From: a virus
Length of the DNA stretch: 38,019 bases
Direction: 5' to 3' (one strand)
Virus record (IMG/VR): IMGVR_UViG_3300032883_000150
Location: 1-38,019 of that record
The position numbers were made by a program, and so were the translations under genes. Position 1 is the first letter of the stretch; each line of letters opens with the position of its first letter. The notes below the pieces were generated by a model. That model was given only the letters and a program-made list of their open reading frames with translations. It was not told where the DNA came from and did no database searches. This document shows positions 1 through 38,019 of this stretch, in pieces.

Positions 1-271
1 CATCCCTGGCAGCAACCCCGGCAGCATCCCAGGCAGCATCCCCGGCAGCATCCCTGGCAGCATCCCCGGCAGCATCCCCGGCAGCATCCCTGGCAGCAAC
101 CCCGGCAGCATCCCAGGCAGCATCCCCGGCAGCATCCCTGGCAGCATCCCTGGCAGCATCCCAGGCAGCATCCCCGGCAGCATCCCTGGCAGCAACCCCG
201 GCAGCATCCCAGGCAGCATCCCTGGCAGCAGCCCTGGCAGCATCCCTGGCAGCAACCCCGGCAGCAACCCA
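1..271. repeat. 12-nt tandem array (partial unit + 22 units), coding
   Basis: catccct followed by 22 head-to-tail copies of GGCAGCATCCCT. Variants occur only at unit positions 8 and 12. Array ends at 271 (ggttctccc follows). Confidence 0.95.
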
Positions 272-679
272 GGTTCTCCCGTAGGAGACATGCCACTCAG
301 GCAGCGGTTCGCCATGACAATCCAGATAGTGGATGGATTTGATTTCCTGAATGAAGTCCTCAACTGCTGCGAGGTCCAGTTTCCAGAGCGTCTGTGTCAG
401 CGCCTTGCGCCACTCCCGCCAGACCAATGCCTCCCACTTCTTCGGCGCGTCGGAATACCATGCCGGTAATGTCCCTGGTTCATCGACCTTGAACACCCAG
501 TCCGCCTTCTTCCTGGAGAATATGTCCTTCGGCGCGACCTCCAACCTGACGAAGTCGCGGTCTATCAGTCTGTCATCCAATATGCCGTGCTCGGCCAGTA
601 TCTCCTCGTGGCTGCTGTTTTTCGGCGACCAAAGCACCTTGCCGTCGCGTACTAGAATACAACTCCAAAAATTACACAT
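1..679 (-). CDS. Tetrapeptide-repeat protein, N-terminal part (136-aa globular domain + repeats); continues across the window junction
   Basis: ATG 679-677 has AAGGAG about 8 nt upstream and overlaps the TAA (674-672) of the upstream gene. My translation MCNFWSCILVRDGKVLWSPKNSSHEEILAEHGILDDRLIDRDFVRLEVAPKDIF...LPEWHVSYGRTW runs without stops into the array, in the frame (R/G/W)(D/V)AA. Not in the ORF track because it runs off the window edge. Confidence 0.8.
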   Translation of the reverse strand, partial: MCNFWSCILVRDGKVLWSPKNSSHEEILAEHGILDDRLIDRDFVRLEVAPKDIFSRKKADWVFKVDEPGTLPAWYSDAPKKWEALVWREWRKALTQTLWKLDLAAVEDFIQEIKSIHYLDCHGEPLPEWHVSYGRTWVAAGVAARDAARAAARDAAWDAAGVAARDAAGDAAWDAARDAARDAAGDAAWDAAGVAARDAAGDAAGDAARDAAGDAAWDAAGVAARD

Positions 680-962
680 GATTACGAGTCTCCTTGCGTG
701 CCTCCCTGGCATATTCACATTCTCCGGCCGCCTGCATGATCTGCTTGATGTCGGCGAGTTCTGACTCGATGTAGACTAGGGCATTCTTCGCTTCCATGGA
801 TGTCGGCAAACTCGAAATGCTCATGGTCTTTCCCGTATCCGAAGAGCCGGTAACGGTCCATCCCTCGGCTTGGTTTAGCATCGCGATCGCGCGCTGCAAG
901 CCCTCATCCACCTTCGCGAGCCTGGACGCGAGCGCACGGATATCCTTCTTGCTAAGCGTCAT
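672..962 (-). CDS. Hypothetical protein, helical/coiled-coil-like (96 aa)
   Basis: Internal ATG of ORF 672..1001 at 962, preceded by GGAGGTG + 5 nt. ATGA overlap with the stop of the upstream mini-gene. Confidence 0.65.
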   Translation of the reverse strand: MTLSKKDIRALASRLAKVDEGLQRAIAMLNQAEGWTVTGSSDTGKTMSISSLPTSMEAKNALVYIESELADIKQIMQAAGECEYAREARKETRNHV

Positions 963-5037: not shown

Positions 5038-8000
5038 TCAACTCGCTTTCACCGTATATTCGCAGATTATCCTTTGCGTCTTCCATTTCGGGAATTGTTC
5101 CGCCGTCCTTAAAGCATACTGCGTGACCGCGCTTCCGCCCGTCGCCGCCGCATAGAGTTCGATATGAGTTATGACATCCGTGCCGTCGATCGTGTACCCA
5201 TTGTCCATCTCGAACTCGGCATGGTAGGAGATCGTGTTGTACCCGCCGCTTGAATACGAGGCGGAGGGGAACTTGGTGCATAGGACGCGGGTGCTGCCAG
5301 TTATTGCCACCCCACTGGCATTGCAGAGTTGCATGTAGTATGTGCCATCGTGGACGGCGTTCTCCCAGCAGCTGAAGAAATAATGGCCTTGCAGGTCCTC
5401 CGGGCTGGTGAACGATTCCGATTTCTCCGACCTCCCGACGGTCTTCGTGAGCCAATTGACCAGAAGACTGTCAGTGTTGTTGACGGTGATCTCCGTCGAA
5501 TCCTCCCGCACTACGATGCCCGTCACTTTCATTTTGAGGGCGCTTATGCCCAACTTGGCGTAATTCAGGGTGATGATGCGCCCACTGCCGTAGTATTTGC
5601 TAGATGTCAACAGGCGCATGAGCTCCGGGTAGATACCGGATACCGTGATCTGACCTTCCCAGATGTCCCTCGATACCGAATCGAGGTATCTGAACGCGGC
5701 ATCGTTCACATCCGCGAGCGTCTTCAGGTTGTCGTCGAATATCTGCTCCACGACTGGGAACTTGCACTTGACGCGGAAGCTGTCCGCCTTGCCCCTGTCG
5801 TCCCGTGCGGCCACCAATGGATAGCCGAATGCGTCCTTGCCCACGACGATGACGCCGCTCGGCCGGTCGCCCGCCTTCTTCGTCAGGCTGCAACCGGTTA
5901 TGCGCAGCTCCTCGTCCGTGGCCGACGAATCGCTGAAGGTCGCGACCGAGGCGTCGCTCAGAGCGTACCGATGTCCCGCCTTGATGTAGTCTATCCCGCC
6001 CAGGCGGTAGTGCCCGATCGCGTGTTGGTATCCCGAATAGGTCCCGCTCGTCTCGAACAGGTCGCTAAGTTCGCGCAGGCATTCGCCCAAGGACTTGCCC
6101 TTGGTGCGGTAAAGGGGCAGGGTGCGGTCGCAATCCGTCGATACCGACGCCGTTACGTCCGGATCCAATCCGATAAGGCTGGTGAACGCCTCTTCCAGCG
6201 TCCTTGTGCCATAGTAATAGTGCAGCAGGCAGCGCTTGTTGACATATGCCTCGTCCTGCATGCCGGCGACGGCGTTGAAGAACTTGGCCTGTTTCATGCC
6301 GGAGGGGCGCTTGTAGATGTAGATCTTGTCCGCCGCCTCATCGACGGCATAGTCCCCTGGAGGCACGTCGACGTACTCGGCCTGATGGATGCTCGATAAC
6401 AGGACGTGGTCCGTGACCGCGACCCATGCGGCACCATTCCAGTATTTGTATTCGGTCACCTCGTAGCGCGGCGCATCCTCTATATCGACGTACTGGTCCG
6501 TCGCGCTCGGCTCGTTGAGGTAGATGTAGTAGGGTCTGCCGACGACCAGTTCCAGCGGTTCGTCGAACCAGTAGGTCCAGGGCCAATACCACGGAGAGCC
6601 GGTCGTGCCGCCGTCCACGCCTATCGTTCCCTCAAGCAGCGGCGCAGTGGTGTCCGGGTTGCCGCTCGAATTGCAGGGCAGTATCTTGAATTGAACATCG
6701 GGCGGTGAATGCACCAGGCCGGGGCTGGAGAGACCGACGCCGCACATCAATGGCTTGGTCGCATAGAACTTCTGCGCTATGGCCGCCTGTTTAATATTGT
6801 ATGTGCTATCCCCTGAGTCGCCCAGGTCTATGCACTCATCGTTGCTTGCCACCTGAAGCGAGACCAATGGCTGCAATATTCCAGCGTCTGTTATCCCCGT
6901 TATCTCGTATCGGTTGTTGGCATCTACCCAGGCCAGGTCCTTCTTGACCGAGTCGCGGTAGTTCTTGTAGACCGTCTTGCCTATCTTCTGGTTCTCGAAC
7001 CATTGAAGCCAATCGCAAGCCTCCACGGTAAGGATGCCATCGCTGCCTTCGCTCATTTTCTGGATCGCGCCGTCGAAGACCCGCGTCTTCTCCCCGGTCA
7101 AAGTCGGATAGAGATAATACCGGACCGAATCGCCCTCATCCAACGCCTGCGCCACGCCGTCGCTCCATCCGGTGAAACTGGAACTGAGAAGGTTATCGGC
7201 GGCGACCGTAGTGGCATTGTCGAGCTTGAAGACGACCTTGCGCGGATGGTTCTCCGTATGATGGAACTCGCGGCCCATGATGCGCGAATCGTTGGAGTTG
7301 TCGGTATATTTGATGAACGGTCCAGTGTCCATATATGTGATGACCAGTCTCGGTCGATGCCCTTCCAGTGTGGCAGTTCCTAGATATGTTTCGACGTAGT
7401 TCGTGCCGCCTACCCCCGGGGCAGTGTTATCGACGTCGCCTTTCATTCTCAGATAGAAGGCGTTCCATCCTCCCGGGGTTATATTGACGGCCGGGATGGT
7501 GAAATCATTGTATATCCCATTCGTGAAACTGGTGACCGAGGCAACGGCGGCACCGATGCGCGTCTTGACGTAATCGGCATCGACCGCTGGCCTTGATGGG
7601 TAACTGTAAACTGGAACGCACACGCTCAACCCACGCTGCGGAGGTCCGTCATCGAACGCCGTGCCGACGATATACAATCCCAGAGTCGCCGAGATGATCG
7701 TCGCATCCGCCGGGATGGCGCTCAGGTCGAAGTGGATGGCCCCCCTGTAGATGTAATAGTGTGTTCCGCCGTTCACGATGCCAGAGCAGTGAATTAGATG
7801 CGAATAGACATCGCCGATGTCCTGGGAAGGGGCGGTCGCGGCGTCCCTCGCTCCGGTGAAGGTCGTTTCGGCGGTGCTGCTCAGGCGCCTGTCGTCAGCG
7901 CCGCTGTATGTCGTGAGGACGGTCGCCGGTATGTAGGTGATGACCAACCTCGGCCGGTGCGTCTGCGATGTCGCCGTGCCGAGATACGCGCCCATCTGGT

Positions 8001-8565
8001 TGTAGTGATTCGTGCCGGATGTGGGGGCGGTATTGTCAACGTCCCCCTTTATCCGCAAATAGAAAGGGTTCTGCGCGCCCGCAACGAGGTTCCCCACCGG
8101 GATGACGAAATCGTTGTATGCGTTGGCCGTGAAACTGGTTGTCGTGGCGATGGCCGCGCCTATGCGCGTCCTGTCGTAGTCGCCGGTGACTGGCGGCTGG
8201 GATGGGTATCCGGCCTCCGCGGCGCAAATGCTCATCCCGGTCTGCGGCGCGCCATCGTCCCATCGGTTGTTGTTCGATACGAATAGGCTTAGAACGGCAG
8301 AGAGTATGGTAGAACCGGCGGGAATGGAGGAGAGGTCGAACCAGATGGCCGCGCGGTACATGATGAAATTTAAAGAGGTATTCCATGAGTTGTGCAATAA
8401 CTCATCCGCGACGTTGCCGACGTTGACGACCCCTCCTGTCGCATCGTCGCGCGCTCCCGCGAAGGTCGCGTTCGTCGATGTGAGTTGGCGGTCGTCGGCG
8501 CCGCTGTAGATCGTCGCCGTGGCCGTATCGTGGCTTATCAAAACCTCGAATTGGGCGACTGGCAT
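5038..8565 (-). CDS. Large distal tail / baseplate protein (1175 aa) with two tandem N-terminal 200-aa beta-sandwich (DNRLRE/CBM96-like) domains
   Basis: Lies between the Dit-position gene and the fibre. Residues about 12-212 and 213-412 are a duplication (YSGADDRxL...FDLSxIPA...SAxL...HRPRLVITY at a 200-aa offset). Confidence 0.75.
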   Translation of the reverse strand: MPVAQFEVLISHDTATATIYSGADDRQLTSTNATFAGARDDATGGVVNVGNVADELLHNSWNTSLNFIMYRAAIWFDLSSIPAGSTILSAVLSLFVSNNNRWDDGAPQTGMSICAAEAGYPSQPPVTGDYDRTRIGAAIATTTSFTANAYNDFVIPVGNLVAGAQNPFYLRIKGDVDNTAPTSGTNHYNQMGAYLGTATSQTHRPRLVITYIPATVLTTYSGADDRRLSSTAETTFTGARDAATAPSQDIGDVYSHLIHCSGIVNGGTHYYIYRGAIHFDLSAIPADATIISATLGLYIVGTAFDDGPPQRGLSVCVPVYSYPSRPAVDADYVKTRIGAAVASVTSFTNGIYNDFTIPAVNITPGGWNAFYLRMKGDVDNTAPGVGGTNYVETYLGTATLEGHRPRLVITYMDTGPFIKYTDNSNDSRIMGREFHHTENHPRKVVFKLDNATTVAADNLLSSSFTGWSDGVAQALDEGDSVRYYLYPTLTGEKTRVFDGAIQKMSEGSDGILTVEACDWLQWFENQKIGKTVYKNYRDSVKKDLAWVDANNRYEITGITDAGILQPLVSLQVASNDECIDLGDSGDSTYNIKQAAIAQKFYATKPLMCGVGLSSPGLVHSPPDVQFKILPCNSSGNPDTTAPLLEGTIGVDGGTTGSPWYWPWTYWFDEPLELVVGRPYYIYLNEPSATDQYVDIEDAPRYEVTEYKYWNGAAWVAVTDHVLLSSIHQAEYVDVPPGDYAVDEAADKIYIYKRPSGMKQAKFFNAVAGMQDEAYVNKRCLLHYYYGTRTLEEAFTSLIGLDPDVTASVSTDCDRTLPLYRTKGKSLGECLRELSDLFETSGTYSGYQHAIGHYRLGGIDYIKAGHRYALSDASVATFSDSSATDEELRITGCSLTKKAGDRPSGVIVVGKDAFGYPLVAARDDRGKADSFRVKCKFPVVEQIFDDNLKTLADVNDAAFRYLDSVSRDIWEGQITVSGIYPELMRLLTSSKYYGSGRIITLNYAKLGISALKMKVTGIVVREDSTEITVNNTDSLLVNWLTKTVGRSEKSESFTSPEDLQGHYFFSCWENAVHDGTYYMQLCNASGVAITGSTRVLCTKFPSASYSSGGYNTISYHAEFEMDNGYTIDGTDVITHIELYAAATGGSAVTQYALRTAEQFPKWKTQRIICEYTVKAS

Positions 8566-16198: not shown

Positions 16199-17347
16199 TC
16201 ACGCCAGGTCGCGTATCTTGAAGTGCGGAGCGAAGGCCAATGCGGTCAGTTCCCCGAACAGGTCCAGGCTGTGCCTCTCTTCGAAGGCGTCGTGCAGTAT
16301 GGCGTTCGATATCGGGCTCGTCAGGTGCCTTACCGGGCTTGCGACGCGGTATTCCACGTGGTCCAGGCTGATGCCGTAGATACGGCCCGCTCCGTCCGCG
16401 ACCACCTGTGGGCTCTTGAAGATCGGGATGTCGTTGTAGGATGCGACCCTGCTCCCGGTCTCCCTGCCCTTCTCGCTCTGCACGCCGTTCACTCCGAAGG
16501 ACACGCTGATGTAGTCGTTGAACCGCTGGTTGCCGCTCACGAGAGCCGCCCAATCGGCCAATGTGTCGGACTTTGTCAGCATCGCCGCCCTCTCGGGCTT
16601 CATGCCGTAGTCCTCGGCCAACTGCATCTTCTCGTCGATCAGGTTCACGGTCAATGCGCGGTCCACCGCAGATGTTCCGTAGCCGACCTGAGCATCGTAG
16701 GTGTAGGTAGAGTCCCTGTCCAGGGTGTACCAGTCCACATCATTCGCGGTGTAGGATGCGTTCGCGCTGTCAGAGTTGTTGTCAACTTCGTATCCGCCTG
16801 CGATCATGCGGTCGAGCGATTCGGGCAATGCGTCCGCGGTCGTCCCGTTCTGGGTCAGGAGCGCCGTGTCGATGCACCTCGCGAAGAAGTCCATCGCATA
16901 CTGCGCCTGCCAGTTCGATTCTCCCCCGGCCTTGCCGTCCTCGGCCGCCGACTTGACCGTTGCCAATTCGGTGATGTCCCAGGTATAGTTCAGGCGCTTC
17001 AGGGTGATGTTGTAGGTCGCCAGGTCGGGCTTGTCGGTAGCTACCAATGCCCCGGTTTCTGCCACTCCGGCCGCTGCGGTCGCGTGCGCGGTGACGATGC
17101 GCACCCCGGACTTCGCGGTCTGGAAGTCTATCTTCGGCAATATCTTCCAAAGGACGCTGTTCTGGTCCAAATTCATAAAGGTTCTTGGACCGAGCATCGC
17201 CGTGGATACCGCCGTCGCATTGATCACGGGGTCGTCCTTCATGAGCAGGTCGCTCATGCGGCCCACGTCCACTCCTAGGGCGGAAAACTGCTTGCGATAG
17301 GCAGCTTCCACCATATCGTTGTAGGTCTTTACGCGGTTGTCGTTCAT
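16199..17347 (-). CDS. Major capsid protein (HK97-fold, by position and size)
   Basis: 382 aa, immediately after the prohead protease-scaffold. ATG 17347 preceded by GAGGCG (the ORF track starts at TTG 17359). Confidence 0.75.
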   Translation of the reverse strand: MNDNRVKTYNDMVEAAYRKQFSALGVDVGRMSDLLMKDDPVINATAVSTAMLGPRTFMNLDQNSVLWKILPKIDFQTAKSGVRIVTAHATAAAGVAETGALVATDKPDLATYNITLKRLNYTWDITELATVKSAAEDGKAGGESNWQAQYAMDFFARCIDTALLTQNGTTADALPESLDRMIAGGYEVDNNSDSANASYTANDVDWYTLDRDSTYTYDAQVGYGTSAVDRALTVNLIDEKMQLAEDYGMKPERAAMLTKSDTLADWAALVSGNQRFNDYISVSFGVNGVQSEKGRETGSRVASYNDIPIFKSPQVVADGAGRIYGISLDHVEYRVASPVRHLTSPISNAILHDAFEERHSLDLFGELTALAFAPHFKIRDLA

Positions 17348-17355
17348 GGTTCGCC

Positions 17356-18621
17356 TCAATTGTCGGGCACCAACGGTGCCTTCTTCTCGTTCAGGTCGCG
17401 CGCCATTTCCATTACAGACACTCCCGCGCTCTGACCCGCTAGCGGGCCCGAACTCTGAACGACGCCCTTGCGGTCGGGCTGTTGCCCCATCGCTACGGCG
17501 GGTGCCTGGGCTGCAGGCGCTGCCTCAGCCTTCGCGTTCAGTTTCTTCTCAGCCTCGATCGCCTCCATCTTCATTGTCAGCTCCCTGTTCTTGGCCTCGA
17601 CCTCTTCGTACTTCGCCTTGTAGTCGATGGCCGGTGCTGCCGGTTGCGCTGGCGGCGTTGGCGGCTGGGTCGGTGAAGCCGCGGCTTGCACCACGGCTGC
17701 GACTGGCTCCTTCTGTTCCTTCTGCATGTCTGGCTTCTTCTCTTCTGGCATCTTCAGTTCCCCTTTTCCTTCTATCTGGTGCTTGATGGCTCCACAGTAT
17801 GCCTCTGGATTCTCCTTGTCGTGGTTCTTCGAGACGCAGTCCGCGAAGTCGGCGTAATCGCCCATCGGCTTCATGAGCAGATCGGGCGGTGGTATGACGG
17901 ACCACCCTTTCTTCTTCAGGGATGCGGCGATGACGCTGTCGTTCAGAACGATCTCTTTCTCATCGCTGCCCTTGTTTACCCCATCCCCGTCAGGTATAAT
18001 GCTGCCCTCTGAGGCGGCCTCTGACGCTTTGGGGTAATCAACCTTTCGGATTTCGGGCAAACAGCCCTTTATCGCCATGATGAGGCTGCCCGTGTTCATC
18101 GGGTTGAAGACCAGGCCGACGTGATACAGTTCCAGGTCGTCTATCTTGTTGAAGCACATGCCCGACTGGCTGCAATAGCGGACTTTCGAGAGAGCCGAGC
18201 CGCCTATTGAGAAAGCTCGTATCGCGTCCTCGCCCTTGTAATCTGGATTGCGGCCTTTGACTATCCCGTCCATCGCGGCCTTGCCAGCCTTGGACTTGTT
18301 TATCTTGCCCTGTATCCAGAACTTGCGGGGGTTGCTGTCCATCAGGAAGGCCGCATCCGTCACCTTGCCGACGTTGATTCCGTCCTTGTGCCCGTAGGCG
18401 AGAGGCAGATCCACGCCGTCATCTTTCAGGCGGGCGAGGGCCTTCTGGAACGCCTCCATCGTTATCATGTCGCCCGCTTTGTCAATCCCTTCGATGCTCG
18501 CGAAGCCGCTGACAATGCCCGTTAATGGGTCGGCGCTGTCTATCTCGAAGTCGTATTGCCAGTTGCCTTTGTTCACGAATGGACGATTTGGGTCCGCCGA
18601 TTCAAGTTCCCATCCTGTCAT
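17356..18621 (-). CDS. Prohead protease (HK97 gp4/S78-like) fused to a coiled-coil scaffold domain
   Basis: N-half has GFASIEGIDKAGDMITMEAF...LPLAYGHK...AFSIGG. C-half is Lys/Glu/Ala/Pro-rich coiled coil. Strong SD AAAGGAGGA. Confidence 0.8.
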   Translation of the reverse strand: MTGWELESADPNRPFVNKGNWQYDFEIDSADPLTGIVSGFASIEGIDKAGDMITMEAFQKALARLKDDGVDLPLAYGHKDGINVGKVTDAAFLMDSNPRKFWIQGKINKSKAGKAAMDGIVKGRNPDYKGEDAIRAFSIGGSALSKVRYCSQSGMCFNKIDDLELYHVGLVFNPMNTGSLIMAIKGCLPEIRKVDYPKASEAASEGSIIPDGDGVNKGSDEKEIVLNDSVIAASLKKKGWSVIPPPDLLMKPMGDYADFADCVSKNHDKENPEAYCGAIKHQIEGKGELKMPEEKKPDMQKEQKEPVAAVVQAAASPTQPPTPPAQPAAPAIDYKAKYEEVEAKNRELTMKMEAIEAEKKLNAKAEAAPAAQAPAVAMGQQPDRKGVVQSSGPLAGQSAGVSVMEMARDLNEKKAPLVPDN

Positions 18622-18905: not shown

Positions 18906-19367
18906 TCACAACCCTCCCACGTTCTTCTCGAAGATGGCGCTGGCTATCGCATCCGCTTGCTGCCTTGCCACCTCCACGCCCCCGCGCAGGAATGCCCGCG
19001 GAGGCATGCCCATCTGAATGACGTATTTCGCGAAGTGCTCGCCCTCGCCGTCGGTCCAATGAAGCGCCTTCTTGGTCTTCGGCGTGATAAGTATTGGCGC
19101 GCCTTCTGGCCCGTAGATTCCTGTGCCGAACTCGACGTACGACGCATAGGGTGCGGCATACCAAATGGTCGAACGCATCGGAACGGTCACATCATTGCCC
19201 GACCTCAGTTTGAGATTGCCGGACTTGACCGGACAATAGACCTGCGACCAATAGTAAGCGGTATTGCCGATCTCATGGGTGGTCTCGTTCAGAATGTCCG
19301 GGATCTTCGAGCGCAAGGCATCGAGGTGGGCGGCGAAGTCCTTGATATTGACCTCGATCCGGACCAT
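18906..19367 (-). CDS. HK97 gp10-family head-tail joining protein
   Basis: Motif VKSGNLK...YAAPYASYVEFGTG. ATG 19367 shares one base with the portal stop (TGATG). Confidence 0.7.
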   Translation of the reverse strand: MVRIEVNIKDFAAHLDALRSKIPDILNETTHEIGNTAYYWSQVYCPVKSGNLKLRSGNDVTVPMRSTIWYAAPYASYVEFGTGIYGPEGAPILITPKTKKALHWTDGEGEHFAKYVIQMGMPPRAFLRGGVEVARQQADAIASAIFEKNVGGL

Positions 19368-21673
19368 CAGACGCCTCCGAGCATCGGCCTGAGCACGAAC
19401 GTACATCGTTCATTCGGATGCAGACTGCCGCCATTCGACTTGGTCATCAGTTCATCCAAGGTGTATGGGCCATTGGCAGCGAATTCCATGCAACCGTCGC
19501 AAGCATCGGGCGCCGGAATCCAATCGTAGAGGGCCGTCCCCATTGGGTCTGCGGTCTTGTATGATTGCGCCCTGCCCTGGTTGGCTATGTAGGTCGCCTC
19601 GCTCCTTGCTATCCTTGCTAGTTTCCATGACTCGCCGTCGCTGACCTTGCGCATCTCATCGAGGGCTAGATGCCAGTCCGCCTTGCCCGGCTCGGTGAAG
19701 GTCTTCGCTATCGCATCGCTGAACGCCCTTTGCTGCGCATTGCCGAACTCCGGCAGGACCGATTGGACGCCCGGCCACTTGTTGAACAGGTAGTCGACCG
19801 CCGCATCCTCCCTTGCGGTCCATTCCACGCCCACGCCGCCCGCCTTGAATCCATCCGAATAGAGGCGGTCGACCGAGATTCGTGCCGATTTCACGAGTTC
19901 CTGTCGTAATTCTGCGACGATTTGGTCAGCTTCCTTCTGCAACCTCGCCGCGGTGGGGTCCTTCAAGGCCGCCATGCGTGCAATGCCATTGTCAATTATG
20001 GCCCTGTAAGTGTCATCCAGATTACGGTAGAACTCCAACTCGTCCTTGCGTAGCCCCGCGATCGCGGCGGCCGGGTCGATGTTGCGCGGACCCGGTGCCG
20101 ACTTCATGAGCAACACTAGATCGTCATATCGTGCGGCCTTGCCCGCCATTTTTGGGTTGCCCTCGAAGGCATTGGCGGGTGCCTGCCCTGGCGCTGGCCC
20201 GTTCACATTCGCGGACAAAGTGGGGGGTTGTGAAAACCCCGATTCAGGGGGGAAGCCTCCTGCAGAAGGGATCACCGCCGATTTCTCGGTCGGATAGACC
20301 CGCCCGTCCTCGTCTAACGCGGTATCGTAGCCTGCGTTCCTCCACGCCGCGGCCGCGCTCGCCCATGCCCCGGAGGTCTGAGCTTCCATCAGCTCGTCCT
20401 CCTCCTCGCCCGGTGGGAAGCCCATGTACCAGTTGACGACGTTGAACGCCTCGAACAGCGCCGAGTTGGTATAGGTCTCCGCCAGGCATATCTGTATCGC
20501 GGCGATGAAGTTGGCATTCGTTGCGCGCTGCATGTCAGGTTGCTGCCCCGACTTGCCCGACTCGATTATGCCGCCGACCACGGGCGCGACGCCGAAGGTG
20601 CGGTGTATCTCCTCGATATAGTTCTTGTACCAATCGAGCGACTGCATCTCGACCGGGGTGTCGAGCATCTTGATGAATTGGACGTCCTTGTTCTCAGGCA
20701 GGCCGACCCATGCCATCGCGTGCGGGTTCAACGCGACGCCCTTCTCCACTCCCTGGGCGAGGCGCTTGACGCTCTCATTCGGCGTGCCCTTGAACACCGT
20801 CAGCCCCTGCGGCGTGCGCTGGTCGCGGTAACTGTCATTGAACCATTCGTTCATGAGCAGGATGTTGCCGACCGGGAGCATTAGGCTGAGAAGCAGCGGC
20901 GTGCCGTTCAGGCGCGCCGCGGCGTGGAACAGGTGCCCGTGGATCATCTCGTTCTCGGCCCATCGGGCGGTGATACGTCCTGCGGATTCAATGAACTGAA
21001 CATAGGCCGTTTCCTTGAGCGGCATCCTATGGTCCGGGCATTTCATCCCGTGCCGTTGCGCCTCCTCTGCGGTGAACTCGCGGTCGAGCGGGCAGGAATC
21101 GCAGAAGTAGGTGTCGTCGCCGATGTTGCCCTTCTTGTCGTAGCGGATGGCGATGTTCCCGGCATCCTCCGCGTAGAGCGCCATCGGCATGCCGTCGTCC
21201 CCGTAGGCGATGGAAGTGAAGAAGTCGTCATACGTCAGGAGGTCGGTCACGTTGGCCTTGAGGATGTGCTGGAAGCTGCGCCGGTTCTTCCTGTCCGGCA
21301 TGAGGAGGAGTTGTTCGAGCGCCCTGTATTCGTTACGCTTCGGGTCGTCTGGTCCTATCTCCCCGTCGCCTTCGGGGTCCTTGGGGTAGAAGTCGAAGCA
21401 TCGGTCGTAGTATTTCGTGGTCCTCGTGACCTCGCGCCCTATGATCTCGATGCACGAGCGAACTGGGGCGCACCGTTCGACCATGCTCCTGAGGATGTAA
21501 GTCGGGACGCGCCTCTCCGCCTGCCCCGGCTGTTGCGGGCTGGACACCGCGTAGGCGAATATCTCCTCGGCGTAGGACTTCTGAGATGGGGCGTCCTTGC
21601 CGACCGATCTCTCATCGGCCTTCATGAGGACATCGAGCGCCCTCTGAACCCTTGTGCGAAGCGTCATGGACAA
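19367..21673 (-). CDS. Portal protein fused to an SPP1 gp7 / Mu F-like head morphogenesis domain
   Basis: 768 aa. C-terminus WKLARIARSEATYIANQGRAQSY...YDWIPAPDACDGCMEFAANGPYTLDEL...HPNERCTF is the MuF signature. Portal-sized N-part follows TerL. Confidence 0.85.
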   Translation of the reverse strand: MSMTLRTRVQRALDVLMKADERSVGKDAPSQKSYAEEIFAYAVSSPQQPGQAERRVPTYILRSMVERCAPVRSCIEIIGREVTRTTKYYDRCFDFYPKDPEGDGEIGPDDPKRNEYRALEQLLLMPDRKNRRSFQHILKANVTDLLTYDDFFTSIAYGDDGMPMALYAEDAGNIAIRYDKKGNIGDDTYFCDSCPLDREFTAEEAQRHGMKCPDHRMPLKETAYVQFIESAGRITARWAENEMIHGHLFHAAARLNGTPLLLSLMLPVGNILLMNEWFNDSYRDQRTPQGLTVFKGTPNESVKRLAQGVEKGVALNPHAMAWVGLPENKDVQFIKMLDTPVEMQSLDWYKNYIEEIHRTFGVAPVVGGIIESGKSGQQPDMQRATNANFIAAIQICLAETYTNSALFEAFNVVNWYMGFPPGEEEDELMEAQTSGAWASAAAAWRNAGYDTALDEDGRVYPTEKSAVIPSAGGFPPESGFSQPPTLSANVNGPAPGQAPANAFEGNPKMAGKAARYDDLVLLMKSAPGPRNIDPAAAIAGLRKDELEFYRNLDDTYRAIIDNGIARMAALKDPTAARLQKEADQIVAELRQELVKSARISVDRLYSDGFKAGGVGVEWTAREDAAVDYLFNKWPGVQSVLPEFGNAQQRAFSDAIAKTFTEPGKADWHLALDEMRKVSDGESWKLARIARSEATYIANQGRAQSYKTADPMGTALYDWIPAPDACDGCMEFAANGPYTLDELMTKSNGGSLHPNERCTFVLRPMLGGV

Positions 21674-22409: not shown

Positions 22410-22631
22410 TCATTTCCTGACCGCCCTCTGAAACGCCGGGAGATACGCAACGAAGATGAGAAGCATCGAAGCCAGCATCGCCGCCTCCAACGCGTTCTCG
22501 TGAATGGTATCGAACGCGAGGACCACCCGCCCGGTCGTCAGCAGGGCGATCAACGAGAACGCGAACAGCAACCCAGTGAACCCCACCGCCGTCAGGTATG
22601 CCGCCACGAATACCCGTTCCTGATGTCTCAT
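22410..22631 (-). CDS. Small two-TM membrane protein (73 aa)
   Basis: ATG 22631 overlaps the TerL stop (ATGA). Hydrophobic stretches VFVAAYLTAVGFTGLLFAFSLIALL and AAMLASMLLIFVAYL. Confidence 0.6.
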   Translation of the reverse strand: MRHQERVFVAAYLTAVGFTGLLFAFSLIALLTTGRVVLAFDTIHENALEAAMLASMLLIFVAYLPAFQRAVRK

Positions 22632-24013
22632 CTGCCCCACCAACCGCCGACCCGCCTCGCTGGTGCGGCATCATGCACGAAGGCGACGCCCAGGTCGCTC
22701 TCGCCCCCATCATAGAGTGCGAGCGCTTGCGCCCAGAACTCGTCAGCGTGGCCTATCTCCGCCTGCCTAGTGCTGTCGAACTTGAGGTAGTTGGTCTCGG
22801 AATACTTGCGCTGGATGCTGTTGATGGCCCTTACCAGGACGGGGTCGTCGGGCATCTCTAGGTTCTTCTTCTCGTAGCGCGTCTTGAGCGAGCCGACCAT
22901 GCTTGCCTTGAGCTCGTTGGTCATGTGATAGCCCCAGACGAAGCCGAACTTCTCCCTCAACGCCTCGTCTATCTCCTTGTTGGCCGTGTTGTCGATGTTA
23001 AAGCGTAGCATGTTCGGCTGGGCGAGGATGTAGTTCAGGCGGTCCAGTTGCTCCAGATAGGGGACCCCGGCCCAGACGTACTTGCAGCGCAGCACCGCCT
23101 TTTCCCCTTGGATCTCGTAGATATGCACCGCGCTCAGGTCCCGGTCGCGCGCCACGTCGTAGCCGCCGACGCATGCCTTGCCCTTCAACTGCTCCACGTC
23201 CAGATACGACAGTTCCGGGTTCACGCACGACATGATGAGTTGCAGGGGGAACTCGCTGTTCGCCTCGCCGATGAATTCGTTCTGGAACTCCTGCCTGAAA
23301 CTCAGTTCGTCGTAGGCGCCGCTCGCTCGGATCGCCTGCACATCCAGGTCGGGGCAGGCGGTGTAGGGGATCAGGACCTTGTCGAACTTGCTGTCCGTGC
23401 GCGGGTTCACCCAGATGTCATGGAATAGATTTGCTTCGCCGAACGGGGTGCTTATCCCGATGAACTGCCCGCCCCTGCTGATGCTCGGGGTGATGGCCTC
23501 CATTACGTCCGCGTCCGTCCGGTTCAGGAAGTGCGCGAACTCGTCGGTGATTATCAGGTCCGCCGGGTAGCCCCTGATGGTGCTGGCGCTGTTCGGGAAT
23601 GCCCAGACGCCCCCGCCCTCCCTGAACGTCAGCTCGTGCTTGTTGTCGTCCTTCACTGTGGGCTGGATCATCTCCGGCCAATACTGCCAGGCGCGCCAGA
23701 ACTCATCGACATAGGCTTTGAAGTGGATGCTCTGCCTCTCGCTCGGGGATACCACTAACACCTTGTGATTGTGCAGTATCGCCCGGAACAGCGCGTAGGA
23801 ACCTTCGAAACTCGATATGCCTATCTGCCTGCTCTTGTTGATGAGAGTGAACTGGCTCTTCAGCCCTAGGAGGTCGGCTTGATATGGATAGAGTTCGTGG
23901 CGGCCCGTGCGCCTGAACATCTCGTTGAACAGGGCGACCAATGCAGAGTCTACCATCTGACGCGCCGCCTTAACGGGATGAGGCGCAATCTCGGATTGTG
24001 GCTGCTCCACCAA
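22628..24013 (-). CDS. terL: Terminase large subunit
   Basis: YPYQ, P-loop-like KSRQIGIS, Walker B DLIITDEFAHF, ISTP, and nuclease-half GGYDVARDRD ... HADEFWA. The start could be ATG 23956 instead of TTG 24013. Confidence 0.9.
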   Translation of the reverse strand: MVEQPQSEIAPHPVKAARQMVDSALVALFNEMFRRTGRHELYPYQADLLGLKSQFTLINKSRQIGISSFEGSYALFRAILHNHKVLVVSPSERQSIHFKAYVDEFWRAWQYWPEMIQPTVKDDNKHELTFREGGGVWAFPNSASTIRGYPADLIITDEFAHFLNRTDADVMEAITPSISRGGQFIGISTPFGEANLFHDIWVNPRTDSKFDKVLIPYTACPDLDVQAIRASGAYDELSFRQEFQNEFIGEANSEFPLQLIMSCVNPELSYLDVEQLKGKACVGGYDVARDRDLSAVHIYEIQGEKAVLRCKYVWAGVPYLEQLDRLNYILAQPNMLRFNIDNTANKEIDEALREKFGFVWGYHMTNELKASMVGSLKTRYEKKNLEMPDDPVLVRAINSIQRKYSETNYLKFDSTRQAEIGHADEFWAQALALYDGGESDLGVAFVHDAAPARRVGGWWGR

Positions 24014-27818: not shown

Positions 27819-28333
27819 CACTCATCACCTATGACGTTGAGTAGGGCGAATTCCCCGAACAATTCCTTGGCCTTTGCATTGTAAATCCTTGCAGCCTCGA
27901 TCTCTGAATCAAATCGACCGAGATAATGGCGAACGTTCGCGCACTGTATTTCGGCCTGCCATTTGTCACTTGGGGGATAGAATGACACGCCTTTGAACCT
28001 AGATGTATGTGAAACGATCCTACGTTGGTTCGCTAGATTCTGAGACTTCGAGCATATACGAAGATTCTCTCGTCTATTATCGAGTGTATTGCCATTGATG
28101 TGGTCTGTTTCCCGCCCCTTCGGAGTACCAATGATTTCTCGGTGCATGAGTTTAGATCCGTGCTTTCCTCTCATATCATTTGGCGTTGTTCGAGCTGCGT
28201 AGGGATATCTTGATTGGTCTCGTTTACTCCCAAAAAAGAGGACATGCCAGGTAAATTGTCTTGCCCATTCATAGTCCTCATCAGAAACTATCGCAATATA
28301 TCCTCTATTTACTGGTACTATCCTTGCCATCAT
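27818..28333 (-). CDS. HNH endonuclease fused to an AP2 DNA-binding domain (homing-endonuclease type)
   Basis: DHINGNTLDNRRENLRICS (HNH_3-type) + SRFKGVSF...KWQAEI...YLGRFDSEIEAARIYNAKAKELFGEFA (AP2). Gene is visibly AT-richer than its neighbours. Confidence 0.85.
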   Translation of the reverse strand: MMARIVPVNRGYIAIVSDEDYEWARQFTWHVLFFGSKRDQSRYPYAARTTPNDMRGKHGSKLMHREIIGTPKGRETDHINGNTLDNRRENLRICSKSQNLANQRRIVSHTSRFKGVSFYPPSDKWQAEIQCANVRHYLGRFDSEIEAARIYNAKAKELFGEFALLNVIGDE

Positions 28334-29451
28334 CCCACCTCCTCGGCCGCTTTGCGCTCGACCTCGACCATGACCCTATATCCTATTCCTTTAAGCTTAG
28401 AGACGGAATGAGATAGGGCATCCAGGTGCGCCTTCGCTTCCTTGATTATGAAGTCGTCCGGGGACGCGACTAAATGATAGTTGTTCTGCCCCTCGCCCTG
28501 CGCCTTCTCCACGATGCCGATGTCCTCTAGTTCGTTTAGCAGCTTGCAGGCGTAGGTGAATGTGAGTTTCCGTCCGCTTTTCAGGTTGTGCGCCGTGGCG
28601 AGCGTCCCGGCCGATGCTTCGCCGAGTTCCTGCAGCAGGAGGACGATCGAGGACCGCATCGTGCCGTTCGCCTTTTCTCCATCAAGTATCGGCATGTTCT
28701 TGGGTAATGGGGCATCCTTGAGGCCCCAGACGAACTCGGCGGGTCTTCGGTTCCCGACGCGCTCCAATGCCACCCTTGCCCTGCGTATCGTTCCCTCGGC
28801 CTCTAGCGCGTGCAGGACGTCGTAGATGAGGCCGTTCCTGATGCCGCATCCGTCCGCTATCTGCCTTGCCGTGCGCCACGGGTGCTTCCTGAGGAATTGT
28901 GTCGTTGCCTTCTTCCCGTTCCAGAAGGGCGAGTTGCCCGATGATGCTTCCTTCATGACCTTCTTGAGGCGTTCTGGATTTGGATGACGCGCCCTCGGCA
29001 AGGCGTGCAGGAATAGGCGCCCCCGGGGACCGACGACGAGGATGCGCCTCAGTCTGCCGGACCGGACCATCGACAGGAGACAAACACGCACCGACCTTGC
29101 GGTGCCGAATATCCTGAGACGTTTCTCGATGAGCGATGCCGGTAGCCACGGTTCGTCGTTGAGTAGTCTGGTTATCCTCTTCTTCAGGTCAGTGTGATAG
29201 AAGAACCTCGAACCGCCTTCAAGAGACATCCCCCCCTTTGGCGGGTGCGAACCTGCGATGGCACAACGTTTGACCCTGCCGACCACGCAGACCTCGACGA
29301 GTTTCTTGTCCTCAAGACGCCTCAGGACGACGAATACGCCCGACTGCCGAAGGCGCAGGCTCTTGGCTATATCATTGCATTTCGACCAACCCCTTTCCTT
29401 GAGGTCGGCGAGTATCCGCGCCTCTAATGCCGAAGGTTTTCCTGTGTGCAT
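28330..29451 (-). CDS. Protein of four tandem winged-helix (MarR-like) domains
   Basis: Four repeats of the pattern helix - HTH - beta-wing. Examples: ILADLKERGWSKCNDIAKSLRLRQSGVFVVLRRLEDKKLVE, and LLQELGEASAGTLA...KLLNELEDIGIVEK. Confidence 0.65.
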   Translation of the reverse strand: MHTGKPSALEARILADLKERGWSKCNDIAKSLRLRQSGVFVVLRRLEDKKLVEVCVVGRVKRCAIAGSHPPKGGMSLEGGSRFFYHTDLKKRITRLLNDEPWLPASLIEKRLRIFGTARSVRVCLLSMVRSGRLRRILVVGPRGRLFLHALPRARHPNPERLKKVMKEASSGNSPFWNGKKATTQFLRKHPWRTARQIADGCGIRNGLIYDVLHALEAEGTIRRARVALERVGNRRPAEFVWGLKDAPLPKNMPILDGEKANGTMRSSIVLLLQELGEASAGTLATAHNLKSGRKLTFTYACKLLNELEDIGIVEKAQGEGQNNYHLVASPDDFIIKEAKAHLDALSHSVSKLKGIGYRVMVEVERKAAEEVG

Positions 29452-35773: not shown

Positions 35774-35814
35774 TGTAAACAGTTTACAGTACAGTAAACA
35801 GTAAACAGTTTCAC
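35774..35814. repeat. Cluster of GTAAAC/GTTTAC heptamer-like repeats (palindrome + direct repeats)
   Basis: TGTAAAC-A-GTTTACA palindrome 35774-35788. Tandem AGTAAAC at 35793-35799 and 35800-35806. Variant GTTTCAC at 35808-35814. Confidence 0.8.
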
Positions 35815-35981: not shown

Positions 35982-36908
35982 TCAGGGGCGCGCAGGGTAT
36001 GTCCCCGACGGCTCGTCCAGGTAGAGGTCCGTGCTCAAATACCTTTCGTCTGCCTCTTCTGACTGGCCCAGCTCCGAGGGACATAGCTTCCGCATCGCCC
36101 CCCGCATGTCGTCCGCGTCCAGGCCGATGTACGCCCGGAAGGTGATGCCGCTGTCCTCGTGCCTGAGGATCTTCGCGATCGTCTCTACGTCCACGCCCTT
36201 CCGCCATAGGCGGTTGCCGAGCGTCCTCCTCAGGTCGTGCGGAGTGAAGCGAACGCCCGAGGACTCGGATACCTCCCTCAACCGCCGCCACATCTGCAAC
36301 TTGCGGTAGGGGAAGAGCGTCGCCCCCTCCTGGTCCATCGCCTCTAGATGCTGCTTCAGGGACGGTATCGTCATGGCGTTCAGTGCGAGCGGCCTGATCT
36401 TGCCGCCCCCCCGCCCCTTGCTCAGGATCATGGAGAGGTGGCAGGAGAGCAACTCCCTTCCATTCTGCACCGTCATCCTCTCCATGTCTATCAAGCGGCA
36501 GCCGTTGTCCACCGCGAGCGAATAGAGCAGCTCGTGGTCGTTCGACATCATCTTGGCGTTCGAGCGGACCTTCTGCACTGCCTCTTCGGAGAGGAAGATG
36601 CCGTCCACCTTCGGGTGCTGCTTCGCGGAGATGACCCACCGAAGTGCATCCCTGTTGCCCGACCATCTCAGGAAGGTCCGTATCGTCGAGCAGTAGATCG
36701 CCCTGGTGTTGGTCGACCTCTGCATGACCGACTCCATGCGGTGCATCTCCGATAGGATCAGGCGTGACGGGCTCGGCCCTCCTAGAAGTTCCCCGCCGAG
36801 TTCCAGTGCCTGCACGTACTGCGTCCTCGTCGATGCGCTGAGGTGCGTCCTTTCGCTCAAATATTCCCTCATCTGCCTGGTCCAAGCGTCCCTTCGCTTG
36901 TATGGCAT
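35982..36908 (-). CDS. int: Tyrosine recombinase / integrase (XerC/D-like)
   Basis: N-terminal core-binding-like LSASTRTQYVQAL, catalytic-region motifs GRGGGKIRPLAL, HDLRRT, LRHED...FRAY. Confidence 0.9.
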   Translation of the reverse strand: MPYKRRDAWTRQMREYLSERTHLSASTRTQYVQALELGGELLGGPSPSRLILSEMHRMESVMQRSTNTRAIYCSTIRTFLRWSGNRDALRWVISAKQHPKVDGIFLSEEAVQKVRSNAKMMSNDHELLYSLAVDNGCRLIDMERMTVQNGRELLSCHLSMILSKGRGGGKIRPLALNAMTIPSLKQHLEAMDQEGATLFPYRKLQMWRRLREVSESSGVRFTPHDLRRTLGNRLWRKGVDVETIAKILRHEDSGITFRAYIGLDADDMRGAMRKLCPSELGQSEEADERYLSTDLYLDEPSGTYPARP

Positions 36909-36930: not shown

Positions 36931-36946
36931 ATATTTAATATTGAAT
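36931..36946 (-). promoter_or_regulatory. TATA-like AT-rich box upstream of the integrase
   Basis: ATTCAATATTAAATAT (minus), centred about 30 nt upstream of ATG 36908. Confidence 0.4.
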
Positions 36947-37214
36947 GATGACTGGTCTCGTGGCGAAGGGAAGTTATATTGGGGCACTTCTTCCTCCCTG
37001 TTCTTCGGTCTGGGTTCCATACTCCGGCTAGCTGAGGTCTGGTTAGTCCCGGCGATACACCTTGTTTTTTGTCTCGTTGCCCCCACACCGGCACAAGGTC
37101 CGCTATCGCATCTGGGCCCTTCTATTTCGGGAGACACCTCGAACGGGTATAGCCCATGAACCGTCGCAATCACGCCAGTCATCATTCTCACTTCTTCCAT
37201 GCATCCCATCATTT

Positions 37215-37604: not shown

Positions 37605-37756
37605 TTCCTCACCCCCTGCCCGCGTGGGCGGTAGACTATCCCACACTCCTTGCAACGCAGCCGTCCGGCGTATGGGCCGGTCATCTGCTGCTTGCGTCTG
37701 CGGGAATGACATAGCGGACATTTGGGGAAGCCGATGAGGGACAGGAGGTCGGTCAT
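37601..37756 (-). CDS. Zinc-ribbon mini-protein (51 aa; CPLC...CKEC)
   Basis: MTDLLSLIGFPKCPLCHSRRRKQQMTGPYAGRLRCKECGIVYRPRGQGVRN. AAGGAGG + 6 nt precedes ATG 37756, with ATGA overlap on the repeat-protein stop. Confidence 0.55.
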   Translation of the reverse strand: MTDLLSLIGFPKCPLCHSRRRKQQMTGPYAGRLRCKECGIVYRPRGQGVRN

Positions 37757-38019
37757 TTGCGAGCCTCCTTCTCCATTCCATAGACATACAAGTCGCCGTT
37801 CACATCGCAGAGCAGCGCGTATCCACGCCTCCAGACCTCCATGCGCGCCTCGGCGTGCTTGCGGTGTGTCTCGCCGATGGGTGGTGCCAGAAGCACTCTC
37901 GCGTAAAGCGCAGCATCCCTGGCAGCAACCCCGGCAGCAACCCCGGCAGCATCCCTGGCAGCAACCCCGGCAGCATCCCAGGCAGCATCCCCGGCAGCAT
38001 CCCTGGCAGCAACCCCGGC
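37753..38019 (-). CDS. Tetrapeptide-repeat protein, C-terminal part (repeats + 51-aa tail)
   Basis: The array frame (R/G/W)(D/V)AA continues into LYARVLLAPPIGETHRKHAEARMEVWRRGYALLCDVNGDLYVYGMEKEARK, then TGA 37755-37753. Confidence 0.8.
   Translation of the reverse strand, partial: AGVAARDAAGDAAWDAAGVAARDAAGVAAGVAARDAALYARVLLAPPIGETHRKHAEARMEVWRRGYALLCDVNGDLYVYGMEKEARK
37910..38019. repeat. Same 12-nt tandem array at the other window end
   Basis: One degenerate unit, 8 full units (37921-38016) and ggc. 37950-38011 is identical to 1-62. Confidence 0.95.

Follow-up and report, generated by a model that had tools for sequence, protein, structure and literature searches.

The IMG/VR virus record IMGVR_UViG_3300032883_000150 was analysed over its positions 1 to 38,019, and this whole stretch of 38,019 nucleotides is called the window below. 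Both of its ends lie inside an array of 12-nt tandem units. Do the two half-arrays belong to one gene, and what could such a gene do for the virus? A preliminary description had proposed a single minus-strand gene spanning the junction of the two ends, with a globular N-domain, more than 30 tetrapeptide repeats and a short C-terminal domain. The parts of this gene and its two neighbours are as follows.

690..695, minus strand: Shine-Dalgarno-like AAGGAG, 10 nt ahead of the start codon
272..679, minus strand: start codon (679-677) and conserved N-domain, residues 1-136, from translation and homologues
1..271, minus strand: 5′ portion of the array with 22.5 units of 12 nt, truncated at base 1
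37909..38019, minus strand: 3′ portion of the array with 9 units, truncated at base 38019
37753..37908, minus strand: C-terminal tail of 51 residues (LYARVLLAPPIGETHRKHAEARMEVWRRGYALLCDVNGDLYVYGMEKEARK; tail itself 37908-37756) and TGA (37755-37753)
672..962, minus strand: upstream gene, 96 residues, also annotated in JGI contig Ga0401129_0001821
37601..37756, minus strand: downstream zinc-ribbon protein, 51 residues (CPLCH...CKEC), with an ATGA overlap with the repeat gene

The proposed start was found in place. The ATG is preceded by AAGGAG (695-690), and the TAA of the upstream 96-residue gene (674-672) falls inside codons 2-3 of the repeat gene (ATGTGTAA). As read from the nucleotides, this stop/start overlap suggests translational coupling of the two genes. 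Translation of 272-679 gives the 136-residue, non-repetitive N-domain (MCNFWSCILVRDGKVLWSPKNSSHEEILAEHG...SYGRT), hereafter also called the head. Its core covers about residues 1-100 (MCNFWSC..SHE..RDFVRLE..P..W.FKVDE..TLP.WY), while residues 100-136 form a subfamily-specific extension. The array starts with W137 (WVAA GVAA RDAA RAAA ... GVAA RD), leaves the window at base 1 and resumes at 38019 (GVAA RDAA GDAA WDAA GVAA RDAA GVAA GVAA RDAA), exactly as had been claimed. Tandem Repeats Finder delimited the same two arrays at 1-270 (period 12, 89% matches) and 37910-38019 (period 12). The tail reads LYARVLL...LYVYGMEKEARK, and its TGA lies over the ATG of the zinc-ribbon gene.

The ORF list contains only a GMLP-frame ORF (37800-38012) for the 3′ end of the array, as a check of that list showed. 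The repeat gene is missing from it because ORFs running off the window end were not listed. In the other frames the flanks of the array are junk, whereas the (R/G/W)(D/V)AA frame is that of complete homologues (P0001, P0013, L016 and others) and of the related contig L014. The GMLP-frame ORF is spurious.

Concatenation of the window ends with zero overlap shifts the frame. Between the prefix and the suffix of the window there are three overlaps: an exact one of 22 nt, one of 70 nt containing a single mismatch, and one of 106 nt containing 6. Once the overlap is removed, circular translation stays in frame and gives proteins of 307, 291 or 279 residues carrying 30, 26 or 23 units, respectively. 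None of the three overlaps looks like the exact k-mer overlap of an assembler, and both ends read as breaks inside the repeat. The public contig L009 of the same strain (JGI 3300038952, 3141 nt) differs from the high-coordinate end of the window at a single base and begins at the very base at which the window ends, the 3′ array part of the window being identical to the start of this contig. The gene is split at the window ends because short-read assembly cannot get through the 12-nt tandem array.

A second public contig of this strain, L014 (JGI 3300038952, 14,059 nt), shares 4887 identical nucleotides with the window, and the first 604 nt of the repeat gene are the same in both. L014 runs from the ATG through 19 units to ...RDAA LYARVLL in a single continuous frame. 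As it spans the gene from ATG to tail, it shows that the N half and the tail are physically linked in the claimed frame. The gene is thus real, and its reconstruction is right after overlap removal; the proposal of a single junction-spanning gene stands with the qualification that the window halves come into frame only after that step.

The repeat number is less firmly fixed. The 31 full units visible in the window (22 + 9) agree with the 'more than 30' first proposed, but removal of the end overlap leaves 30 or 26, and L014 has 19. The L014 array is even shorter than the N-side part of the window array alone (22.5 units). Either the population contains several array lengths, or one of the assemblies collapsed via a shared 71-nt segment. 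Exact-pattern scans of viral and metagenome contigs found no further alleles of this strain. The copy number is 19, 26, 30 or more, and the window alone does not fix it.

In order to place the repeat gene in its genome, the other genes of the window were identified by Pfam scans of the larger ORFs and a PHROGs scan of the first ORF batch. Nearly every gene lies on the minus strand.

5038-8565, minus strand: fibre-like protein, 1175 residues
11225-12175: minor tail protein
16199-17359: major capsid protein
17356-18621: protease
19367-21673: portal
22628-24013: large terminase (TerL)
28330-29451: TrmB/MarR regulator
35982-36908: tyrosine integrase

Matches of the major capsid protein are confined to tailed viruses of archaea (those of Haloarcula and one of Methanofastidiosa), and one member of the N-domain family is found in a contig binned as Methanomassiliicoccales. 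Together with the terminase, portal, protease, capsid, tail and integrase genes, this shows that the window is a temperate head-tailed archaeal virus of about 38 kb. Because the halves of one gene stand at its two ends in one orientation, the sequence is essentially a complete genome, circular or circularly permuted. Small early genes surround the repeat gene, which stands immediately upstream of the integrase and outside the structural block; it is a non-structural gene. In locus L012 the homologue P0005 is likewise followed by a coupled CPLCH zinc ribbon (L012 3971-4150), then by a C5 DNA methyltransferase fragment, two genes downstream of the homologue. The coupled zinc-ribbon protein may be a functional partner of the repeat protein.

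Other features of the window were recorded. Scans of the window for tRNAs and Rfam families found none. In a non-coding gap of about 290 nt directly downstream of the integrase gene, the heptamer TGTTTAC/GTAAACA occurs five times, with copies in either orientation (35775-35809); these may be arm sites of attP, or else operators. A 27-nt inverted repeat (36943-36969 / 37161-37187; 78% complementary, arms 191 nt apart) is located in the interval between the integrase gene and a 129-residue ORF upstream of it. The 1175-residue protein that closes the tail module shows weak matches to TGF-beta propeptide and disaggregatase-related repeat domains and is probably a host-recognition fibre.

We then searched for relatives of the protein. 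The preliminary description could name no family, and neither could we for the N-domain in Pfam, NCBIfam, PHROGs, PADLOC or the PDB. With the merged protein, Pfam returned 0 families at E <= 10, curated repeat families (pentapeptide, LRR, HEAT and others) included, NCBIfam and PADLOC gave no match, and PHROGs matched only in the repeats (phrog_3416, E = 0.22). Nor did the family profile match any PDB sequence. The N-domain does recur in hypothetical proteins, as had been recognised. Used alone as the query, it matches 12 proteins with E values down to 5e-68, and the nearest relative is 74-79% identical to the window protein. Head, xxAA array and tail are all present in P0001, P0002, P0004 and P0005, and the tail is 73% identical to that of P0013 (E = 1e-25). 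Homologues with the same three-part layout, matching at such levels in both N-domain and tail, are far beyond chance. An exhaustive HMM search extended the family to 1618 cluster representatives at E <= 1e-3, of which 302 reach E <= 1e-10 (best 1e-56). The members come from metagenomes and uncultivated viruses. Searching isolate phages and plasmids with the N-domains by tblastn gave no match, a scan of species-representative genomes yielded just a Peribacteraceae and a Bacteroidota MAG locus, and further protein searches returned a handful of unnamed matches, the cluster look-up giving solely 'hypothetical protein'.

Residue conservation was calculated over 149 unique heads. Cys2 is found in 100% of them, His24, Glu47 and Asp66 in 99% and Trp74 in 98%. 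The cysteine is always residue 2, so that the heads share a Met-Cys (MC) start. The window protein has this start as well as H24, E47, D66 and W74.

What follows the head varies. The family plan consists of the head, then a tandem array, then a subfamily-specific C-terminal cap, and the window protein fits it. In its own subfamily, xxAA/xSAA tetrapeptides precede a tail of the form LYxxxLL...KH..HA.ARM.VW..GYGL.CDVNG.LYVYG, and in at least 17 complete homologues a single ORF encodes head, xxAA array and tail together. R[MW].VW..G[YW], a motif of the tail, occurs in 18 of the 159 proteins scanned; 17 are of the xxAA type or related (xxAV), and one is a 92-residue fragment. Most family members carry non-xxAA arrays. 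Some have other tetrapeptides (WDSV, WSSI, WGQL) with a different linker and C-terminal domain, and some have longer units of 8 residues (GSSTVEAW, DSGRAVVH, GNSTVKAY), LRR-like units or units of 11 residues.

In the subfamilies with 8-residue units (for instance DSGRAVVH, GSAKVEAY or DNSHIDAY; loci L046, L057-L063, L070-L073 and L078-L081), weak matches to the T4 gp5 C-terminal beta-helix and to baseplate hub profiles were obtained. These matches suggest that such arrays form a beta-solenoid and not helices; close relatives again differ in their number of units. In P0006, a natural variant of 141 residues, the head is followed at once by the final residues of the tail (…SMCGK|LFVYDVAKKEARKK), which looks like a deletion of the whole array plus most of the tail.

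To see how the three parts might be arranged in space, the 307-residue reconstruction was modelled with AlphaFold2 from 26 sequences (pLDDT 81.9, pTM 0.69). Head and tail are modelled with confidence. In the head, pLDDT exceeds 90 for strands 5-10, 43-50, 61-65 and 130-134 and for helices 24-30, 79-96 and 103-113; the head core modelled alone reaches 88.4. The tail, also above 90, consists of a helix (269-283) and a beta-hairpin (287-301). The array is modelled as two long helices, 137-189 and 200-263, separated by a turn region of low confidence (pLDDT 42-54). The two helices are predicted to be alanine-faced and to fold back as a hairpin, the variable W/R/G and D/V residues pointing outwards. 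Such a helical hairpin would place the tail beside the head; glycine-rich units may be non-helical. Foldseek searches of the PDB with the full and core models found no fold better than E = 0.5. Against BFVD, the model matched A0A8S5PVB3 (Siphoviridae sp. ctPsO101; TM 0.83, E = 2e-4) and also A0A6J5R2L7 (uncultured Caudovirales phage). Both are 'Fragment' entries of the MC-start family and have the same head and the same array-plus-cap plan.

The variation within the array is highly restricted. Window units have the form xGG GxT GCT GCC and encode (R/G/W)(D/V/A)AA. Over the 31 units, variation occurs only at positions 1 (A/G/T) and 5 (A/T/C), both nonsynonymous, and third codon positions are invariant except in the last unit. 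Asp occupies the second residue in 21 of the 31 units and Arg the first residue in 11. Five related arrays also keep the rule of two variable codons with the residue always changed, while the codons of the constant residues are specific to each array (GCT GCC, GCC GCG, GCA GCA, GCG GCA, CAG CTC). At the level of sequence, this pattern points to homogenisation within each array with diversity kept at two residues.

Array length varies as well. Three pairs of loci with 100% identical flanks differ in their units (11 vs 25, 6 vs 15, and a 9-unit difference), although these are short-read contigs in which array collapse during assembly could account for part of the differences; the 6 vs 15 pair is the most reliable, as a 6-unit array fits within a single read. 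Units are gained or lost in multiples of 12 nt, and the reading frame is never broken. Among metagenome loci, a contig end truncates 31 of 78 family genes (about 40%), in many cases within the array. Contigs ending inside family arrays were seen in many independent samples (L002, L003, L011, L018, L024-L026, L037, L040, L043 and others). Genes of this head family regularly break assemblies.

A protein of similar design is known from mycobacteriophages. Tweety gp54 has a head of about 140 residues, 48 AA(G/W/Q)(S/Y) units encoded by a 12-bp unit and a short tail; its two alanines are invariant, variation is found at first and second codon positions only, the third being invariant, and copy number differs among Tweety, Che8 and PMC (PMC2884959). 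Changes in repeat number tune gp54 against the Phrann gp29/gp30 defence (PMC9262239). The window protein resembles Tweety gp54, Che8 gp57 and PMC gp51 (phrog_3416) in its head of about 140 residues, its array of 12-bp units and its tail of about 45-50 residues. As in gp54, each unit has two invariant alanines and two variable residues, and variation is limited to two residue-changing codon positions. As in the gp54 group, copy number differs between close relatives. Tweety and the window, both temperate tailed viruses, also agree in the location of the gene, which in each belongs to the early region and is close to the integrase.

The window protein and gp54 are however not homologous in head or tail: hhalign of the family alignment against the gp54 N-domain gave a probability of 0.7%. 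With phrog_3416, gp54 scores 1e-142, whereas the E value of 0.22 for the window protein concerns the repeat region only. The variable residues are R/G/W and D/V in the window versus G/W/Q and S/Y in gp54, the array of Tweety gp54 is uncharged, and the host is an archaeon versus an actinobacterium. Counter-defence activity is shown for gp54 only. The window protein may thus be called gp54-type by analogy, and is not a member of the gp54 family. A further tandem in-frame repeat, VR2 in bbp36 of Bordetella phage BMP-1, varies in copy number between isolates and was called reminiscent in the Tweety paper (PMC2884959). Its unit is of 24 bp and differs in sequence, and we liken it to the window array by description only.

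Overall, the explanation that we tentatively prefer, while putting it somewhat short of an even chance as a whole, is that of one gene of a temperate archaeal virus, split by assembly, whose product carries a length-tunable surface module on a conserved head and likely serves in counter-defence. The N-terminal head of about 136 residues, with its near-invariant Cys2, His24, Glu47 and Asp66, would carry a constant activity, either binding or catalysis. The xxAA array would be a module tunable in length and surface. Through slippage or recombination, the viral population would be able to readjust it rapidly to counter a protein of the host or of a rival virus. By analogy with gp54, counter-defence, or else host interaction, would be the most likely role of the repeat protein. 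No link of the head family to defence by homology was found (no PADLOC match, head not homologous to that of gp54).

A second explanation overlaps with this one and puts catalysis before length tuning. The head would be an enzyme or a metal-binding module, in which the N-terminal cysteine exposed by Met removal acts with His24, Glu47 and Asp66 as a nucleophile/triad or a metal site, and the repeats would be only an interchangeable module for target recognition or oligomerisation. The conservation of these four residues over the 149 unique sequences, the invariable position of the cysteine and the confident folding of the head alone (pLDDT 88) argue for it, as does the joining of one head to unrelated repeats (xxAA, WDSV, 8-residue, LRR-like and 11-residue). 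Indeed, the unlike arrays of other subfamilies (8-residue, LRR-like) may mean that the common function lies in the head rather than in the helical rod. On the other hand, Foldseek matched the models to no Ntn hydrolase, SRAP, papain-like or other PDB fold (best E > 0.5), and no sequence family matched in Pfam, NCBIfam or PDB sequences. Among known N-terminal-Cys enzymes, Ntn amidotransferases and SRAP/YedK were considered and rejected: Cys2 is present, but neither Pfam nor Foldseek gave a match. We consider catalysis as the primary function possible, though doubtful.

The composition of the window array raises another possibility, namely DNA mimicry: like Ocr and ArdA, the helical, acidic array would block restriction or further defence proteins that bind DNA. 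Asp in 21 of 31 units against Arg in 11, the elongated helical shape predicted by the model, the early location of the gene and the C5 DNA methyltransferase fragment two genes downstream of a homologue are all consistent with such mimicry. It does not extend to the relatives, however, whose arrays are neutral or basic (YSAA/RSAA, WGQL/RGQL, WSSI), nor to the uncharged array of Tweety gp54, and Pfam, PADLOC and Foldseek revealed no similarity to known DNA mimics. DNA mimicry is therefore improbable.

Two last readings are rejected. An origin of the array as variable region of a diversity-generating retroelement, with mostly adenines as variable nucleotides, could be imagined from the A/G/T and A/T/C alternatives at unit positions 1 and 5, but is hardly credible given that no reverse transcriptase was found in the larger ORFs (Pfam) or in the first ORF batch (PHROGs), that no template repeat or second array copy is apparent elsewhere in the window, and that the variable codons of relatives differ at non-A positions (TAC/CGC; TGG/TAT/GGT/GAT/CGT). 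Equally implausible is the absence of a single gene, either as two truncated paralogues or with the GMLP/CCQG frame being true and the rest an artefact of repeat assembly: no assembly spans the array of the exact window allele, and plain end-to-end concatenation is out of frame, but the junction of N half and tail in the xxAA frame of L014, the 17 or more complete homologues and the junk flanks of the other frames refute it.

Returning to the preferred explanation of a tunable module on a constant head, the results bear on more than one virus. Tetrapeptide-repeat proteins have hitherto been a curiosity of cluster F mycobacteriophages, with one functional example, Tweety gp54. What is new here is a gp54-like design on an unrelated head and tail, in an archaeal virus, within a family that comprises at least 1600 sequence clusters and lacks a name, a Pfam model and a structure. 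Genes of this family are under-annotated, and linear-looking contigs that end in such arrays may be complete genomes. In its widest and more speculative form, which we would think unlikely to hold in full, the MC-start head with interchangeable arrays would be a widespread system of archaeal and bacterial viruses for fast retargeting, made of a constant effector and a cassette-like module. The effector would possibly be a Cys/His/Glu/Asp enzyme or metal site. Array length and a two-residue 'code' (W/R/G/Y with D/G/S/V) would evolve by slippage under diversifying selection, providing a germline-encoded variable binder against host defence proteins. Such a system would be systematically lost from databases because its arrays break short-read assemblies. 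If the analogy with gp54 is true, the family would be a rich and so far unused source of tunable proteins for anti-defence or host interaction, and rapid retargeting would have been solved convergently.
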